Source of the DNA: an uncultured Acidobacteriota bacterium
GTDB taxonomy: Bacteria; Actinomycetota; Acidimicrobiia; Spongiisociales; ZC4RG35
Length of the DNA: 64,000 bases
Assembly: GCA_963828465.1 (NCBI GenBank)
Contig: CAWHEU010000022.1
Coordinates: 320,001-384,000 of the forward strand
Reading direction: 5' to 3'
Positions 49,654 to 57,917 of this stretch are shown here, piece by piece. The notes under the pieces are model-generated. The model was not told the DNA's origin and did no database searches. It saw only the letters and a list, made by a program, of their open reading frames with translations. The first letter of the stretch is position 1, and the number at the start of each line of letters is the position of its first letter. Both the position numbers and the translations under genes were made by a program.

Positions 49654-50517
49654 ATGAGTTTTGAGACCCCGCGAGCGGTCGCTGAAGCGTTGCGCTCGGT
49701 CGATTATCTGCCCGACGACCGCATAGCGCAGGTCGTCTTTCTCGCTGACCGACTCGACAAGCCAATCCTTGTCGAGGGACCAGCAGGGGTCGGGAAGACA
49801 GAGCTCGCCAAGTCGCTGGCCAGGGTCACCGGACGCGACCTGATCAGGCTCCAGTGCTACGAGGGCCTCGACGAGGCCAAGGCGCTCTACGAGTGGAACT
49901 ACAAGAAGCAGTTGCTCAGAATCCAGGCCGACGTCGACCACGACTGGGAGGACATCGAGCAGGACATCTTCTCGGAGGATTTCCTTCTCACCCGCCCACT
50001 TCTCGAGGCTATTCGCTCCGAGAATCCCGTCGTGCTGCTCATCGACGAGGTGGACCGGGTCGAGGTCGAGACCGAGGCATTGCTCCTCGAGATCCTCTCC
50101 GATTTCCAGGTGTCGATCCCCGAGTTGGGGACGATGGAGGCACGAACCCAGCCGATGGTGGTTCTCACGTCCAACAACACCCGGGAGTTGAGCGAGGCGC
50201 TGAAGCGCCGCTGCCTCTTCCTCCACATCGACTACCCCGATGCTCAGAGGGAGCAGGAGATTCTCGCCGCTCGGGTTCCCGGGTTGTCCGAGCATCTGGC
50301 CGTACAGGTGGCCAAAGTGGCCCGGTCGATCCGAAGCCTCGACCTGAAGAAGGCGCCCTCCGTCTCTGAGACCATCGACTGGGCGCGGACCCTCCTCGCC
50401 CTCTCCATCGAGGATGTCGACGAGGCGATCCTGGGCGACACGCTGCACGTCCTCCTCAAGTACCAGGCCGACATCGAGAAGGCGGCCAAGGAGCTGACGT
50501 CGAGCCCTCCATCGTGA
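49654..50517 (+). CDS. MoxR-family AAA+ ATPase (CoxD-like)
   Basis: EGPAGVGKTE, RLQCYEGLD, YEWNY.KQLL, LIDEVD, LTSN.TREL..ALKRRC. Confidence 0.92.
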   Translation: MSFETPRAVAEALRSVDYLPDDRIAQVVFLADRLDKPILVEGPAGVGKTELAKSLARVTGRDLIRLQCYEGLDEAKALYEWNYKKQLLRIQADVDHDWEDIEQDIFSEDFLLTRPLLEAIRSENPVVLLIDEVDRVEVETEALLLEILSDFQVSIPELGTMEARTQPMVVLTSNNTRELSEALKRRCLFLHIDYPDAQREQEILAARVPGLSEHLAVQVAKVARSIRSLDLKKAPSVSETIDWARTLLALSIEDVDEAILGDTLHVLLKYQADIEKAAKELTSSPPS

Positions 50518-50518
50518 C

Positions 50519-51946
50519 GTGCTCGGGATAATCACCGGTTTCATCGACGAGCTGAGGGCGGCCGGCGTCCCTGTGTCGATGGTGGAGGCCATCGACGGGA
50601 TGCGGGCAGTCGAGGCCGTTGAGATCGGCGACAGGATCGCCCTTCGCGAGACCTTGCGGGCCACCTTGATCAAGAACCTGCGTCATGAGCGCGCCTTCGA
50701 TACTGCGTTCGACGTCTATTTCTCGATGGTTCCCCAGTCCCTTTCCGAGCCAGGGGATTCCGGGGAGTCCGATTCTCAGCCGCATGCCGACCGGTCCGAT
50801 GCCCTTGAGCCGCCCCCGTTCGATATCGACGGGCTCCTCGATTCGCTCCTCGAGGCGCTGGCCGGTCTCGAGGAGGAGGCGATCCGGCGTGGCGCCCGTA
50901 CCGCGGTAGACGAGTTGGCCGGCATGGAGCCGGGGCGGCCCGTCGGCGGGACCTACTACCTGTACCGAACGCTGCGCAGGCTTGATCTGGCGGACCTCGA
51001 GGAGAGATTGATCTCTGCCCTCACCGACGATCAGGACCTGTCCGATTTCGAAAGGCGTCTCCTCCGCGAGGAGGTGGAGGCCAGGATCGAGCGTCTGCGG
51101 CAGGAAATCGAGGAAGAGATTCGACGACGACTCGTGGCCGATCGCGGTCGTGATGCGGTGGCGCGCACCCTGCGGCGCCCTCTCATCGAGGATGTCGACC
51201 TGATGCACGCCACGACCAGCGACCTCCACGAAATGGAGGACGCCATCGGGCCCCTTACACGGAAGCTGGCAGCGCGGTTGGCCCGACGCCGTCGGATGCG
51301 GGCAGGTCGGCTCGATTTCCGTCGCACCGTGCGAAAGTCGTTGGCAACCGGCGGCGTCCCGGCAGACCCACAGTTCCGCCATCCACGGCCTCACCGGCCG
51401 GAGGTCTGGCTCCTCTGCGACATCAGCGGGTCCATGGCGACATTCTCCCGTTTCACCCTCCAGTTCACCCACGCCATGTCGACCCACTTCTCCAAGCTGC
51501 GGTCTTTCGCTTTCGTCGACACCATCGATGAAGTCAGTGACTTCTTCGGCCCGGGGGTGGATTTCGGGTCGGCATTGCGGCGGGTTACTACCGAGGCCGA
51601 GGTGGTGTGGCTGGATGGGCACTCCGATTACGGCAACTCCCTGGAGACGTTTCACACCCGGTACGGCCGTCAGCTCACCCCCCGGACGACCGTGATCATC
51701 ACAGGGGACGCCCGTAACAATTACCGGCCGCCACGGGATGGGGTGCTCGGCGACATCGCAGAGGCGTCACGTGCCTTGATCTGGCTCAACCCCGAACCTG
51801 AGGCATACTGGGACACCGGCGATTCGGCGATGTCTCACTATGCCGGCCATTGCACCTCGGTCCATGAGGTGCGGACGCTGCGCCAGCTCGAGCAATTCAT
51901 CGAGGATTTGACCCTCCCCGGGCCAAGGCTCCTCCAGAATGTCTAA
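50519..51946 (+). CDS. VWA domain protein (CoxE-like)
   Basis: GRLDFRRTVRKSL, CDISGSM (MIDAS), SDYG, GDARNN, WLNPE. Confidence 0.9.
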   Translation: MLGIITGFIDELRAAGVPVSMVEAIDGMRAVEAVEIGDRIALRETLRATLIKNLRHERAFDTAFDVYFSMVPQSLSEPGDSGESDSQPHADRSDALEPPPFDIDGLLDSLLEALAGLEEEAIRRGARTAVDELAGMEPGRPVGGTYYLYRTLRRLDLADLEERLISALTDDQDLSDFERRLLREEVEARIERLRQEIEEEIRRRLVADRGRDAVARTLRRPLIEDVDLMHATTSDLHEMEDAIGPLTRKLAARLARRRRMRAGRLDFRRTVRKSLATGGVPADPQFRHPRPHRPEVWLLCDISGSMATFSRFTLQFTHAMSTHFSKLRSFAFVDTIDEVSDFFGPGVDFGSALRRVTTEAEVVWLDGHSDYGNSLETFHTRYGRQLTPRTTVIITGDARNNYRPPRDGVLGDIAEASRALIWLNPEPEAYWDTGDSAMSHYAGHCTSVHEVRTLRQLEQFIEDLTLPGPRLLQNV

Positions 51947-52017
51947 ACCGTGAGAGGCTTTCTGCCGATGTTGTGGCACACGCCCACCTACGGGCGATCG
52001 GACTAGAGGTGAAGAAC

Positions 52018-52383
52018 ATGGGCTCGCGGATACTCGTTGTCGAGGACTCGGCCGTCATCAGACGGCTCATCGAAGTCTGTCTCCGCGCTGCCGACCTCGA
52101 AATCATCACCCGTGAGGATGGCAAGACAGGGCTCGCCGCCGTTGGCTCGGAGTCACCCGACCTGGTCGTCCTGGACATCGGGCTTCCCGGCATGGACGGG
52201 TGGGAAGTGTTGGACCGCATCCGTCGGGACGAGTCGACGAGAAACATCCCGGTAGTCGTCCTCACCGCCCACGCCGAAGAGGAATCTCGACGCAGGGCGA
52301 ATGAGGGCGGGGCAGATGCTTTCGTCACCAAGCCGTTCCAGCCCAACGATTTCCGCTCGACGGTCCTGTCGCTGCTCGAGTAG
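52018..52383 (+). CDS. Single-domain response regulator (CheY-like)
   Basis: ILVVED, LDIGLPGMDG, LTA, FVTKPF. Confidence 0.9.
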   Translation: MGSRILVVEDSAVIRRLIEVCLRAADLEIITREDGKTGLAAVGSESPDLVVLDIGLPGMDGWEVLDRIRRDESTRNIPVVVLTAHAEEESRRRANEGGADAFVTKPFQPNDFRSTVLSLLE

Positions 52384-52402
52384 GCCCACCCCAAATGCGG
52401 GA

Positions 52403-53425
52403 CTAAGCCGGCTCCTTCTCCAAGACCTCAGCTAGACGCTCGGCGAGGTCCACCACCCGGTTGGAGTATCCCCACTCGTTGTCGTACCACGACATAACTT
52501 TGACCAGGTTCCCGCCGAGCACCTGAGTGCCGCCGGCATCGAAGATCGACGAGTGCGGGTTCCCGATGATGTCGGTCGAGACGATCGGATCCTCCACATA
52601 TTCCAGTATCCCGGCCATCGGGCCCTCCGCCGCGGCCCTGACCGCTGCGTTCACCTCTTCGACTGTCACATCACGGTCCAGCTCGACCACCAGGTCGACC
52701 GTCGAACCGTCGGGCACAGGCACCCGCATCGCCATGCCGTCGAGTTTCCCGGCGAGATTGGGGATGACCTCCCCGATGGCAGCCGCGGCACCTGTGCTCG
52801 TCGGGATGATGTTCTCGGTCGCCGCCCGGCTCCGGCGTAGGTCCTGGTGCGGGACGTCGGCCAGCACCTGGTCGTTGGTGTAGGCGTGCACCGTCGTCAT
52901 CACGCCCTTGCGGATGCCGAAATTGTCGTCCAGCACCTTGGCCAGAGGCGCCAGTGAGTTCGTGGTGCACGAGGCGTTGGAGACGATGATGTCGTCGGAG
53001 TCGAGTTGGTCATCGTTGACCCCAAGGACGACTGTCTCATCCACCTTGTCCTTCGACGGGACGGTGAGAATGACTCGCTTGGCCCCGGCATCGACATGCT
53101 TCTGGAGCGTTGCGCGGTCCCTGAAGACGCCAGTCGATTCGATGACGATGTCGACATCGAGGTCCTGCCACGGCAACGAGGATGGGTCGCGCTCCATGAG
53201 CATCTTGATCTCATGCTCTCCGACCCTCATCACACCCCCGTTCACAGTGACTTCTTCCTCGAACCGTCCCATCACCGAGTCGTACTCGAGGAGGTAGGCG
53301 AGAATGTCGTCATCGGAAAGGTCGTTGATGGCGACGACTTTGAGATCCGAATTCGGCCGTGAAGCGATGATGCGAAATACCGCCCGCCCGATCCGCCCGA
53401 AGCCGTTGATTGCGACGTTGGCCAT
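52403..53425 (-). CDS. gap: Glyceraldehyde-3-phosphate dehydrogenase, type I
   Basis: NGFGRIGR, SNASCTTN (catalytic Cys), TTVHAYT, PTSTGAA, MRVPV, WYDNEWGY; start may be 53431. Confidence 0.96.
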   Translation of the reverse strand: MANVAINGFGRIGRAVFRIIASRPNSDLKVVAINDLSDDDILAYLLEYDSVMGRFEEEVTVNGGVMRVGEHEIKMLMERDPSSLPWQDLDVDIVIESTGVFRDRATLQKHVDAGAKRVILTVPSKDKVDETVVLGVNDDQLDSDDIIVSNASCTTNSLAPLAKVLDDNFGIRKGVMTTVHAYTNDQVLADVPHQDLRRSRAATENIIPTSTGAAAAIGEVIPNLAGKLDGMAMRVPVPDGSTVDLVVELDRDVTVEEVNAAVRAAAEGPMAGILEYVEDPIVSTDIIGNPHSSIFDAGGTQVLGGNLVKVMSWYDNEWGYSNRVVDLAERLAEVLEKEPA

Positions 53426-53427
53426 GT

Positions 53428-54447
53428 TCATTCTCCGTTGAGGTAGGTGGCGATCATCCCGGTGACCTCGACCACCCGGTTCGAGTAGCCCCAGCCGTTG
53501 TTGAACCAGGTAATGGTCTTCACCAGAGTTCCCCCTGTCACCATGGTGGCCAGACTGTCATAGACACCGGAGTGGGAGATCGATCTCACGTCTGAGGAAA
53601 CAATCGGATCTGCGACATATTCGATGATTCCCTGGTACTTGCTCTCGCACGCCGCCCTGACGAGGCCATTGACCTCTTCCTTGTCCGTAGCGCGCTCGAC
53701 GTCGACCACCATGTCCACGGTCGAGCCGTCGACTACGGGAACATTGAGGGCGACCACTGCCAGCTTGTCCTCGAGCTCGGGCAGGACCTGGGTGATGATC
53801 TCGGCAGAATTCGTGTCGGCGGGGATGATGTTCTCCCCAGCAGCCCGGGAAGTCCGGTAGGAGTCGGTCGGTACATCTGCGAGCCGTCCTGCGTTGGACA
53901 TCGCCTTGACCACCGTCATGTAGGCGCGCTTGACCCCGAGCTCCTCGTTGATGGTCTTCAATATCGGTGCGGCGGCGTTCGATGTGTTGGAGCCGAGCGC
54001 CACCTGGTCGACGTCCGAAGTGAGGACGTCGTCGTTTATCCCACGAAGAAGCAGAGGGATCTCACCGGGGATCTCAGGGCTCGAGGTCAAGACGACTTTC
54101 TTCGCCCCAGCCTTGAGATGCTGCTCCAGGGCTTCCTTGGTCCGATAGCGGCTGGTGGTCTCGAGCACTACATCGACGCCGAGCTCCCCCCAGTCGGCAT
54201 CGCCCGGCTCACGTGCGTTCAGCCAGGCGACATTCCTGTCGCCGTAAGACAATGTGCCGTCGGCGTAGGACACAGGTGCCGGAAAGCGGCCGTAGATGGA
54301 GTCGTACTTGAGGAGGTAGGTGAGCGCCTCGGGATCGGCGATGTCGCTGATCGCCACGATGTCGAGGTCGGCCCGATTGTGGAGGAGGCGCATCACGTTC
54401 CGCCCGATACGGCCGAAGCCCATGAGCCCTATCCGGGTTGTCATCAT
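53428..54447 (-). CDS. GAPDH paralogue lacking the catalytic Cys and His
   Basis: GFGRIGR, YDSIYGRF, SRAAGENIIP, PIVSSD retained; ALGSNTSN, TVVKAMS, LNVPV, WFNNGWGY at catalytic/substrate positions. Confidence 0.85.
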   Translation of the reverse strand: MMTTRIGLMGFGRIGRNVMRLLHNRADLDIVAISDIADPEALTYLLKYDSIYGRFPAPVSYADGTLSYGDRNVAWLNAREPGDADWGELGVDVVLETTSRYRTKEALEQHLKAGAKKVVLTSSPEIPGEIPLLLRGINDDVLTSDVDQVALGSNTSNAAAPILKTINEELGVKRAYMTVVKAMSNAGRLADVPTDSYRTSRAAGENIIPADTNSAEIITQVLPELEDKLAVVALNVPVVDGSTVDMVVDVERATDKEEVNGLVRAACESKYQGIIEYVADPIVSSDVRSISHSGVYDSLATMVTGGTLVKTITWFNNGWGYSNRVVEVTGMIATYLNGE

Positions 54448-54539
54448 CGATCGATTCCTTTCTGCGGAACTGAAACTAGTGGTCATACCCCTTGGCGACC
54501 CAAACCGGCGCCGGTAGGTTCGGCTTCGGGAGGGTTGAG

Positions 54540-55134
54540 ATGCTGTTGGCTTTCGCCCTGAGCGCGGTGTGCCTGATGGCACCGGTCGATGGCCCGGTTG
54601 TCGCCGAATATGCGCCAGTGGGGTCTTATGGCGGCCACTGGGGCATCGACTATGCAGCCGGCTGTGGGTTCACAGGTGCGGGCACCGGCCTCGGGCCGGA
54701 TCACTTTCGCCGGCTCGGTAGCAGGGATGAGATCGGTGACCATCGAACCGGTCCCCGGGTTCAAGGTGTCGTTGAGCTATCTGTCGGAGATCGAGCAGTC
54801 GTCGGGAGCCAGCGTCGGTCGGGGTGAGGTGATCGGAAGATCCGGATCACCCCATGGCGTGAATGGGGTCCATCTGTCGACCAGAATCGACGGCGAGTAC
54901 GTCGACCCTGGGACCCAACTGGGATGTCGTGACACCGACATCACCCGAGCGCTCCGGCTGGTGACGCCTCCGGGACCGTATGCTCGCCAACGTGCGCACC
55001 GGGATCCTGGGCGGGACGTTCGACCCGATCCATATCGCCCATCTCCACGCCGGCGAGACGGCATTGTTCGCAGCCGACCTCGACCGGGTGTTGTTCATGC
55101 CCGCTGGCGACCCATGGCAAAAAGGAGCACGTGA
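54540..55134 (+). CDS. M23-family peptidase-like protein (apparent +1 frameshift near 54660)
   Basis: GHWGIDY, then VRAPASGRITFAG, GEVIGRSG, VHLSTRIDGEYVDP; 3' end overlaps nadD. Confidence 0.75.
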
Positions 55135-55564
55135 GCTCACACCAGCCGCCGAACGTCTGGAGATGACGAGGCTGGCCGTCGAAGAAACGGACGGATTCGA
55201 GATAGACGATCGTGAGATCGATCGGAACGGTCCTACCTACACCATCGATACGTTGCTCACTTTCCCTTCGGGCGAGGAGCTGTTCCTGATCCTCGGGGCC
55301 GACGCCGCCATCGGGCTTCCCACGTGGCACCGCTGGGAGGAGGTCATCGAAAGGGCGGGCATCCTCGTGGTGCCCCGACCGGGCACGGACCTCGCGGCGG
55401 TCGCCGCGACGGTTCCTGAGGCCACCATCCTGGAGATGTCGGCGCTCGATATCAGCTCGACATCGATCCGTGATTTGGCGGCGTCAGGGCGGCCCTATCG
55501 CTTCCTGGTGCCCTCAGAAGTCCACCGGTTTATCGACAGCAAGGGTGTCTACACGCAAATGTGA
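54992..55564 (+). CDS. nadD: Nicotinate-nucleotide adenylyltransferase
   Basis: GILGGTFDPIHIAHL, YTIDTL, ILGAD, ISSTSIR; TATGCT -10 box 7 nt before the GTG. Confidence 0.95.
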   Translation: MRTGILGGTFDPIHIAHLHAGETALFAADLDRVLFMPAGDPWQKGARELTPAAERLEMTRLAVEETDGFEIDDREIDRNGPTYTIDTLLTFPSGEELFLILGADAAIGLPTWHRWEEVIERAGILVVPRPGTDLAAVAATVPEATILEMSALDISSTSIRDLAASGRPYRFLVPSEVHRFIDSKGVYTQM

Positions 55565-56533: not shown

Positions 56534-57917
56534 TCACTGTTCCGGTGGGATGTTCTGGTTGAGCCGGAACAGGTTGTCGGGGTCGTAATGGGCCTTGACA
56601 CGACGGAGCCGGTCCCAGGTTCCGCCCGGGTAGGCAGCCCGCACACGGTCCTGTCCCTCATCGGCGAGGAAGCCGACGTACCCGCTGAGGTCGCCGTTGC
56701 TTAGGGACTTGGCGAAGTCGGACACCCACGTCTCGCGCCGCTGGCGGTCGTCGGGGCCTTCGTAGAACGAAGCGACATTGATCATCATTTTCCGATCGCG
56801 GTGAGCGAACGCTGTGGCGTCGTTGGGGACACGAGCCATGGCTCCGCCCAGGACCCGGAGTTGGGCTACCCGCATTGGTGCATCCGAGTCTTCGAGATAA
56901 CCGAGGATGGTCTCCGCGGTTGCCGAATCGAAGGTGTCGGCCCACAACGTCCGGGCTACTGCCAGCGGTCGGTACTCCTCGTCTTCCGGTCCGTAGATCT
57001 CCGGATAGGGCATCTCTTGGACCATGTCGGCGATCGGCTGAGCGAGCCGGCGGAACCGATCCATCACCTTCTGCCCTTCGTCGATGTCGCCGCACCACGC
57101 CACCAGGGCCATGATCACGAGGCTGCCGTGGATCTCCTCTGGGACGAATGGCAGGGGCGGGCAGCTCATGACGTTGGCGATGGTCGACAGCTCTTCGGGA
57201 GCCTGCTCCGCCTCGGCGATGAACCCGACGATGGTGTCGACCGTGGCAGGGAGAACCATCATCCCGCCGACGATCCGGTCCAGCTCCTGTAGTCGAAGCT
57301 TGGAATTTGGTGGCGACCCCGAAATTGCCTCCACCTCCCCTGATGGCCCAGAAGAGGTCGGGATGAGACTCCTCGTCGGCGCGCACCACCTCGCCGTCCG
57401 CCGTGACCACCTCGGCGGCAAGTAGCGAGTCGATGGTCATGCCGTGCTTTCGCACGAGGAACCCGATTCCGCCTCCGAGGGTGATTCCGCCCAGTCCCAC
57501 CGATCCTGTGTCGCCGAGCCCGGTGGCTAGCCCGACGGCGTTGGTCTCGTTGCTGTATTCGGCGGCGGTGAGACCGGAGTCGGCCCATGCGGTCCTGGAC
57601 TCGATGTCGATCTCGAGGGACTTGAGGCTCCTCAGATCGATCACGATCCCGCCATCGGTGGTGCTGTGTCCGGCGGCGCTGTGCCCGCCACTGCGGATGG
57701 CGAGCTCGACACCGGTCTCCCGCGCGATGGTCAGGACCGTCGCTATGTCGCTGGCGTCTGCCACTTGGGCGACCGCGGCGGGGCGGACACCGTCGTAGAC
57801 GGGTATGAAGAGTCGGTGGGCGTCGTCGTATCCCTCGTCCTCGGGCGTGAAAACCTGTCCTGTCAGCGCTTGGCGGAGACGTTCGATGTCGATATTGGGT
57901 CTGGCTGCGATGGACAT
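56534..57917 (-). CDS. FAD-binding oxidoreductase, BBE-like (apparent +1 frameshift near 57302)
   Basis: IRSGGHS, GITLGGG.G, DLFWAIRGGGGNFGV, then RLRRVKAHYDPDNLFRLNQNI. Confidence 0.88.

Follow-up and report, generated by a model that had tools for sequence, protein, structure and literature searches.

A 64,000-nucleotide window of an uncultured bacterium that GTDB places in the Acidimicrobiia (assembly GCA_963828465.1, contig CAWHEU010000022.1, positions 320,001 to 384,000; our coordinates count from the first letter of this stretch) carries two glyceraldehyde-3-phosphate dehydrogenase (GAPDH)-type genes in tandem on the minus strand. The downstream gene, gap (52403-53431), encodes a canonical type I GAPDH of 342 amino acids. 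Directly upstream of it lies an intact open reading frame (ORF) for a GAPDH-fold protein of 339 amino acids, which we call X (53428-54447). X lacks the thiol nucleophile, the His base and both phosphate-binding Arg residues. Judged by these residues, X is unable to perform the thiol and phosphate chemistry of GAPDH. X nevertheless is under purifying selection along all 339 amino acids and is not decaying, and it belongs to a clade with a single, old, multi-phylum origin. We give about an even chance to the reading that X is translated and assembled together with Gap, as a subunit that binds NAD(H) but is dead for thiol catalysis.

Locus and active site of X

Both X and gap match the Pfam domains Gp_dh_N and Gp_dh_C, with X scoring 102.5 and 144.5 bits. 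The two proteins align end to end at 44% identity, and X has no extra domain, extension or basic patch. Against TIGR01534, the NCBI type I GAPDH equivalog (cut-off 367.2 bits), gap passes with 452.5 bits whereas X falls below with 290.5. X also scores below both erythrose-4-phosphate dehydrogenase models (248.6 against a cut-off of 530.55 for TIGR01532, and 249 against 539 for NF010058). When we searched the window's own assembly (3.07 Mb, 29 contigs, 92% complete), X and gap were the only GAPDH-like genes. Therefore, gap must be the housekeeping enzyme.

The longest ORF of X reaches 54582. The ATG at 54447 has GAAAGGA 8 nucleotides (nt) upstream (54456-54462), a ribosome-binding-like motif recognized by its resemblance to the consensus only. 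At the other end, the stop codon TGA of X (53428-53430) overlaps the first ATG of gap (53429-53431), giving a 4-base overlap, ATGA (53428-53431). A second gap ATG lies 6 nt further on (53423-53425), and a better-spaced ribosome-binding-like motif, GGAGA, stands 6 nt upstream of it within the 3' end of X (53432-53436). Translation of gap may start at this second ATG instead of the first. The spacing between X and gap is 0-2 nt whichever ATG is used.

We aligned X with gap and took the GAPDH residue numbers and roles (nucleophile, base, Pi and Ps anion sites) to apply to X. The catalytic Cys149 is replaced by Asn (AAC, 53986-53988; ASCTTN to GSNTSN) and the catalytic His176 by Lys (AAG, 53905-53907; TVHAY to VVKAM). 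Arg195 of the anion site is Thr (ACT, 53851-53853; DLRRSR to SYRTSR), Arg231 of the substrate-phosphate site is Asn (AAT, 53743-53745; MRVP to LNVP), and Glu314 is Gly (GGC, 53494-53496; WYDNE to WFNNG), all codons being on the minus strand. The STGAA of gap reads DTNSA in X. Retained in X are GFGRIGR, YDSIYGRF, RAAGENIIP, PIVSSD, the Asp of ISD/IND and Asn313. The sequence-only reading had already described an intact upstream ORF of GAPDH length with the first four of these motifs, a stop that abuts or overlaps the gap start, and the substitutions, with codons for the Cys and His changes. All of this agrees with our data, to which we add R195T, a change that it had not listed.

Cys to Asn and His to Lys each require two base changes, from which the same reading had argued that sequencing error was unlikely. 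Our comparison with the closest relatives of X, the best 120 of 7,998 scored database matches, confirmed the argument. Asn149 is present in 120/120 of them and Lys176 in 118/120, so the substitutions are neither chance nor sequencing error. These relatives are 70-96% identical to X and come from Acidimicrobiia metagenome-assembled genomes (MAGs) wherever the organism is given. Each query of this kind had more than 7,900 database relatives. Their source annotations read "glyceraldehyde 3-phosphate dehydrogenase" or "GAPDH NAD-binding domain-containing protein".

An AlphaFold2 model of X was confident (predicted local distance difference test, pLDDT, 94.5; predicted template-modelling score, pTM, 0.91), and only the S-loop region 181-210 was less certain. 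In a Foldseek search with this model, the best matches were GAPDHs, with template-modelling (TM) scores of 0.90-0.93 and 35-40% identity. A selenocysteine candidate was rejected, as the in-frame stops inside GAPDH matches were terminal stop codons.

Distribution, selection and origin of the pair

We next give the distribution of the pair from the genus outwards. In the genus, an X-type match of at least 656 bits was found in 22 of 24 other genomes (a count that includes the unpublished genome G018), and X adjoins gap wherever a listed contig holds both. The two exceptions are G011, with a fragment only, and G016, which is 69% complete and has a single match. Elsewhere in the order, 10 of 16 genomes of other families carry the pair, including the unpublished G027 and G038, and the other 6 (families f2, f5 and f6) have a single gap. 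Our class sample comprised 151 genomes that were at least 85% complete. Here the pair was seen in 15/15 genomes of the window's own family, 7/8 of f9, 1/1 of f11 and 2/6 of f12. Family f16, with genomes of 0.9-1.1 Mb, had two GAPDH matches in 25 of the 26 sampled, four of which were checked by residue. The pair was not found in the remaining families of this sample. In the 29 class-sample loci that we checked by residue, the upstream copy always had Asn149 and the downstream copy was canonical. In a phylum sample of 121 genomes, the tandem occurred only in the 4 genomes of the window's order; none was found in the 5 other Acidimicrobiia or in the 112 genomes of other classes, 6 of these 112 being unpublished.

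Two side observations concern these genomes. In one f16 genome of about 1 Mb, the X match (G056:C1:131141-131896) covers no more than profile positions 4-255 and its open frame has 256 amino acids, so this copy may be truncated or frameshifted. Some genomes of the genus have a third GAPDH gene elsewhere (L133 G008:C53 and L151 G001:C37; also G004, G018 and G024). It is canonical and of another, non-partner lineage, and the window's assembly has none.

The sequence-only reading had suggested looking for tandem gap pairs in other genomes, and we found them in many phyla. Among the 150 best representatives from 1.84 billion proteins, 120 have Cys149, His176 and Arg231 and 30 do not. Some of these 30 are fragments; the full-length ones have N, S, A, V, G or P at position 149. 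Using ten non-Acidimicrobiia sequences that vary at Cys149, His176 or Arg231 as queries, we retrieved 80 named loci. Their MAG labels are Latescibacterota, Fibrobacteraceae, Gammaproteobacteria, Pseudomonadales, Acidobacteriota (Polarisedimenticolia, Holophagales, Thermoanaerobaculia), Eisenbacteria, Krumholzibacteriota, Deltaproteobacteria/Desulfobacterales, Myxococcota, Neomarinimicrobiota/Marinimicrobia/Fidelibacterota, Planctomycetota, Bacteroidota and Acidimicrobiia. A variant copy is followed by a canonical gap in 77/80 of these loci; 2 end at a contig edge and 1 is a lone canonical gap. No cultured carrier was found among the 80 named loci or among the named relatives listed.

Gene order is constant. 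X lies directly upstream of gap on the same strand in 120/120 loci holding both; of the 109 loci scored for spacing, 63 have a stop/start overlap of 1-10 nt. We found no conserved third neighbour gene, the best being common to 20/84 loci. Together with the residues of X, this order supports the earlier view of an upstream copy without GAPDH catalysis that is coupled to an active gap.

The ratio of nonsynonymous to synonymous substitution rates (dN/dS) had been predicted to be well below 1. Over 66 pairs from 12 genomes of the genus, its medians are 0.093 (X) and 0.050 (gap), with dS at about 0.83-0.86. The X ORF is intact in the window and in all relatives that we examined. For the full set of loci, the divergence rate of X is 1.4-1.8 times that of the partner gap.

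To place the pair in the GAPDH family, we built a tree of 246 sequences, excluding the G027 and G038 loci and duplicate loci. Copies were labelled X or gap by residues 231 and 314, and these labels match the gene order in 120/120 loci. The 123 upstream and 123 downstream copies split cleanly with support 1.0. The X clan persisted at 0.998 after 20 solitary Acidimicrobiia gaps and 74 canonical representatives were added (340 sequences). The solitary gaps of f5 and f6 nest among the partner gaps, which suggests loss of X there; most other solitary gaps of the class fall in a different canonical clade. Asn231 is present in 115/123 X and Gly314 in 119/123, and parsimony reconstructs both as ancestral. 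The pair is not the product of a local duplication. Instead, X belongs to an old clade of upstream paralogues whose founding changes were R231N and E314G.

The loss of the catalytic residues was stepwise. Cys149 is kept in 20/123 X, from Acidobacteriota, Eisenbacteria, Krumholzibacteriota, Planctomycetota and Desulfobacterales; we refer to these as C-type. With Cys taken as ancestral, parsimony indicates that it was lost at least 4 times. One clade now has S, A, T or P at this position, and Myxococcota have I or V; N arose separately in the Acidimicrobiia clade (50 sequences, support 1.0) and in a Holophagales MAG. Lys176, a late change with a single origin, occurs in 23/123 X, all of them within the window's own family but making up only part of it. 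This series makes the window's X the most derived state. The proposed conservation of the Cys-to-Asn change thus stands for X of the Acidimicrobiia type but not for the family as a whole. Likewise, the His-to-Lys change is conserved in the closest relatives but not beyond part of the window's family, and does not define the X family. Among 120 relatives of one C-type X (L065), 31 carry Cys for Asn at the Arg231 position, which places a second Cys in the old substrate-phosphate site.

Role of X beside Gap

If X works as a subunit, X and Gap would be made from one mRNA in coupled amounts and would assemble into a mixed GAPDH-type tetramer. Within it, X would bind NAD(H) and serve a structural or regulatory purpose without catalysing a reaction. 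Several features suggest that the function of X depends on Gap and not on catalysis of its own: gene order does not vary, the two genes often overlap, no further gene is a constant partner, genomes of about 1 Mb retain X, and the nucleophile was lost repeatedly while the gene stayed. At least four losses of Cys149 from an intact gene likewise fit a role that does not need catalysis.

We compared residues across 85 non-redundant X/gap pairs. Conserved at 90% or more in X and gap alike are GFGRIGR, the NAD-ribose residue Asp32, S148, T150, R194, R197, the ENIIP stretch, Asn313 and WG. A second set, comprising C149, T151, R195, the TGAA loop, R231, E314, D181 and H190, is conserved in gap and relaxed or changed in X. 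X has conserved residues of its own, namely Asn231, Gly314, a Pro in the SSPE stretch and the Ser after PIVS. This pattern indicates that the substrate and phosphate sites have been dismantled family-wide, while the dinucleotide-binding core has been kept and its surroundings partly loosened.

A 1:1 complex prediction of X with gap gave weak support, with a score of 0.44 (runs 0.50, 0.42 and 0.44) against 0.00 for the best control, with at least 96% contact agreement between runs and a partner pLDDT of at least 91. The mark used for such predictions was reached by 58/80 solved complexes and 2/110 mismatched pairs; at scores of 0.60 or under, it was reached by 7 of the 80 solved complexes and by both passing mismatches. 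Because GAPDH homotetramers have been solved, the pass may reflect mere likeness, and we did not count it as evidence.

Expression data were drawn from four soil metatranscriptome runs of four studies, in which contigs from relatives (92-99% alike) cover both genes. Contigs bridge the X/gap junction in three runs (53085-53616, 53376-53511 and 53305-53508). These contigs lend weak support to co-transcription of X and gap, as contigs are not proof of a single transcript and RNA libraries may contain DNA. RNA-library contigs of two studies (X15 record 8, X17 record 23) end at 54455-54458, 8-11 nt upstream of the X start and inside GAAAGGA, a faint hint that the mRNA leader of X may be very short. 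No contig of the four runs lies over 54487-54648, and a gap in contigs proves nothing. Promoter, terminator and Rfam scans of 52000-55200 returned nothing above chance, and no riboswitch or leader.

Several observations weigh against X as an NAD(H)-binding subunit of Gap. N6, N31, E94, F99, N180 and P188, which we take to line the NAD site, are conserved in gap but relaxed in X. Dedicated hetero-interface marks are hardly evident in the partner gap, where only 2 columns differ from other canonical GAPDHs. In addition, the old active site has not drifted. The string N149 K176 T195 N209 N231 G314 is common to 112/120 close relatives of X, and among Acidimicrobiia-type X, Asn149 is found in 50/50 and Asn209 and Asn231 in nearly all. 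A structural-only subunit should tend to drift at these pocket positions, so their conservation suggests that the old active site may bind something. Finally, 120 relatives of one C-type X keep Cys149 in 120/120 and His176 in 119/120, and a C-type X passes TIGR01534 (387 against 367.2 bits), whereas the Cys-less X tested score 284-314. Ancestral X may therefore have been an enzyme once, and in places may still be one.

The main rival reading is a stand-alone X with a new ligand-binding or catalytic function in the remodelled pocket, such as an NAD-dependent reaction without a thiol intermediate or metabolite sensing. X would then be co-expressed with gap through linked functions and not through binding. 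Besides the conserved N149, N209 and N231 of the Acidimicrobiia and the conserved K176 and N312 of the window's clade, conservation of S148, T150 and N313, and of H176 outside the window's clade, speaks for this, as does the strict retention of Cys and His in C-type members. However, different clades have S, A, N, T, P, V or I at position 149, which does not point to a single new chemistry common to all. Variation across the family is also wide at 195 (13 parsimony changes), 207 and 209 (31 parsimony changes). With gap as the sole conserved neighbour, the strict order and overlap are also more typical of subunits than of pathway neighbours. We consider a stand-alone function rather unlikely, though a serious contender. 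The subunit model may itself accommodate an allosteric ligand site at the conserved pocket.

It is improbable, in our estimate, that X acts beyond Gap catalysis altogether, either as a nucleic-acid-binding or redox-signalling protein that moonlights via its Rossmann fold or as a translational-coupling device that sets gap expression. GAPDH-fold proteins do moonlight, and the stop/start overlap lets translation of gap depend on translation of X. Nevertheless, purifying selection on the whole protein and a confident fold exceed what a coupling ORF needs, and X, close in length to Gap and aligned with it throughout, offers no added domain, extension or basic patch. We see a negligible chance that X is a duplicate in decay or an error of assembly or sequencing. 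Two other genes of the window appear frameshifted, so the assembly has some indel errors, but the ORF of X is intact in all relatives examined, with low dN/dS in the genus and an invariant Asn149 among its closest relatives. Moreover, X is present across phyla and in genomes of about 1 Mb, and metatranscriptome contigs cover it.

Flanking genes and known systems

The two genes that appear frameshifted lie beyond X. An M23 peptidase gene (54492-55134, plus strand), divergent from X, appears divided between two frames, ORF 54492-54827 holding a signal-like N-terminus with an HWGID motif and ORF 54589-55134 the remaining M23 domain; the frame apparently changes near 54600-54650. A FAD_binding_4/BBE-type oxidase gene (56534-57917, minus strand) is divided between two overlapping frames, ORF 56658-57917 encoding the N-terminal FAD domain and ORF 56534-57421 the C-terminal BBE domain, apparently through a frameshift or a single-base error in the assembly. 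On the other side of the pair, 49654-51946 (plus strand) holds an AAA ATPase gene (Pfam AAA, AAA_5), presumably MoxR-like, followed directly by a VWA CoxE-like gene. These are flanked by obgE and a DksA/TraR zinc-finger gene, and by a lone response-regulator gene that converges on gap.

X derives from the type I GAPDH family (GapA, TIGR01534, EC 1.2.1.12). It shares the two-domain fold and length (TM 0.92 and 39% identity to 1gd1_O of Geobacillus stearothermophilus) and retains the Rossmann GFGRIGR, Asp32, S148, T150 and Asn313. It differs in lacking Cys149, His176, Arg195, Arg231 and Glu314, in its sub-cut-off score and in forming its own clan in the tree.

GapB of the A2B2 GAPDH is catalytically active and exerts regulation via a C-terminal extension with a Cys pair. 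The chloroplast A2B2 GAPDH of land plants (GapA/GapB, 7q53) resembles what we propose for X in that two paralogous subunits share a tetramer and one is regulatory. However, X has neither the C-terminal extension nor the catalytic Cys, and hetero-assembly is established for A2B2 whereas it is putative for X and Gap. Epd is an enzyme in which both Cys149 and His176 are present. Like X, Epd/GapB of E. coli (TIGR01532, 2x5j) is a GAPDH paralogue with altered phosphate handling, in its case with a changed substrate; X scores below the Epd models and has no nucleophile.

Two eukaryotic proteins provide further parallels. The trypanosomatid AdoMetDC prozyme is a dead paralogue that forms a functional heteromer with the active copy (PMC6221367). 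X is likewise a dead paralogue of a metabolic enzyme that has lost catalytic residues and is under purifying selection. The prozyme belongs to another enzyme family and is eukaryotic, and for X and Gap a heteromer, or activation, is at most putative. TbGAPDHL, a GAPDH-like protein of the trypanosome flagellum, is described in PMC4106842 as a flagellar structural component that is predicted to be inactive; its cofactor-site region is conserved, ligand binding is raised, and conservation among orthologues is much lower. In contrast to X, it is eukaryotic, unlinked to an active gap gene and, as far as tested, outside the bacterial X clade, and X is strongly conserved instead.

No NCBIfam model separates the X clade. 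A PDB profile search returned only canonical GAPDHs and engineered C149S and C149A mutants. In the full-text literature, with most subscription journals outside its coverage, we found no description of a bacterial Cys-less GAPDH partner, the nearest item being TbGAPDHL. The suggestion that the pair is an undescribed system thus holds so far, and we provisionally regard X/gap as undescribed.

More tentatively, and with less than an even chance, many bacterial lineages may rely for glycolysis and gluconeogenesis on a two-gene GAPDH. X, a dedicated subunit that binds NAD(H) and is catalytically crippled or dead, would join Gap in a mixed tetramer and tune or activate it, as a bacterial 'prozyme' of an exceptionally well-studied enzyme. 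If so, it would have been overlooked because model organisms lack it and annotation does not tell it from ordinary GAPDH, and the conserved Asn/Lys pocket of the window's clade would be an allosteric ligand site.

Many X genes are labelled "type I GAPDH" or "GAPDH", and therefore copy counts and metabolic reconstructions over-count active enzymes. The X clade also provides a natural series, in which Cys is kept, then lost at least four times, and then His is lost too, that could show how an enzyme subunit becomes a pseudoenzyme. The X gene is conserved across the phyla named for the 80 loci and persists even in streamlined marine genomes of about 1 Mb. Biochemistry and phylogenetics both use GAPDH as a standard model, and textbooks present it as a homotetramer. 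If X is indeed a second subunit whose gene is obligately linked to gap, annotation and modelling of GAPDH would have to change in the lineages with the pair.

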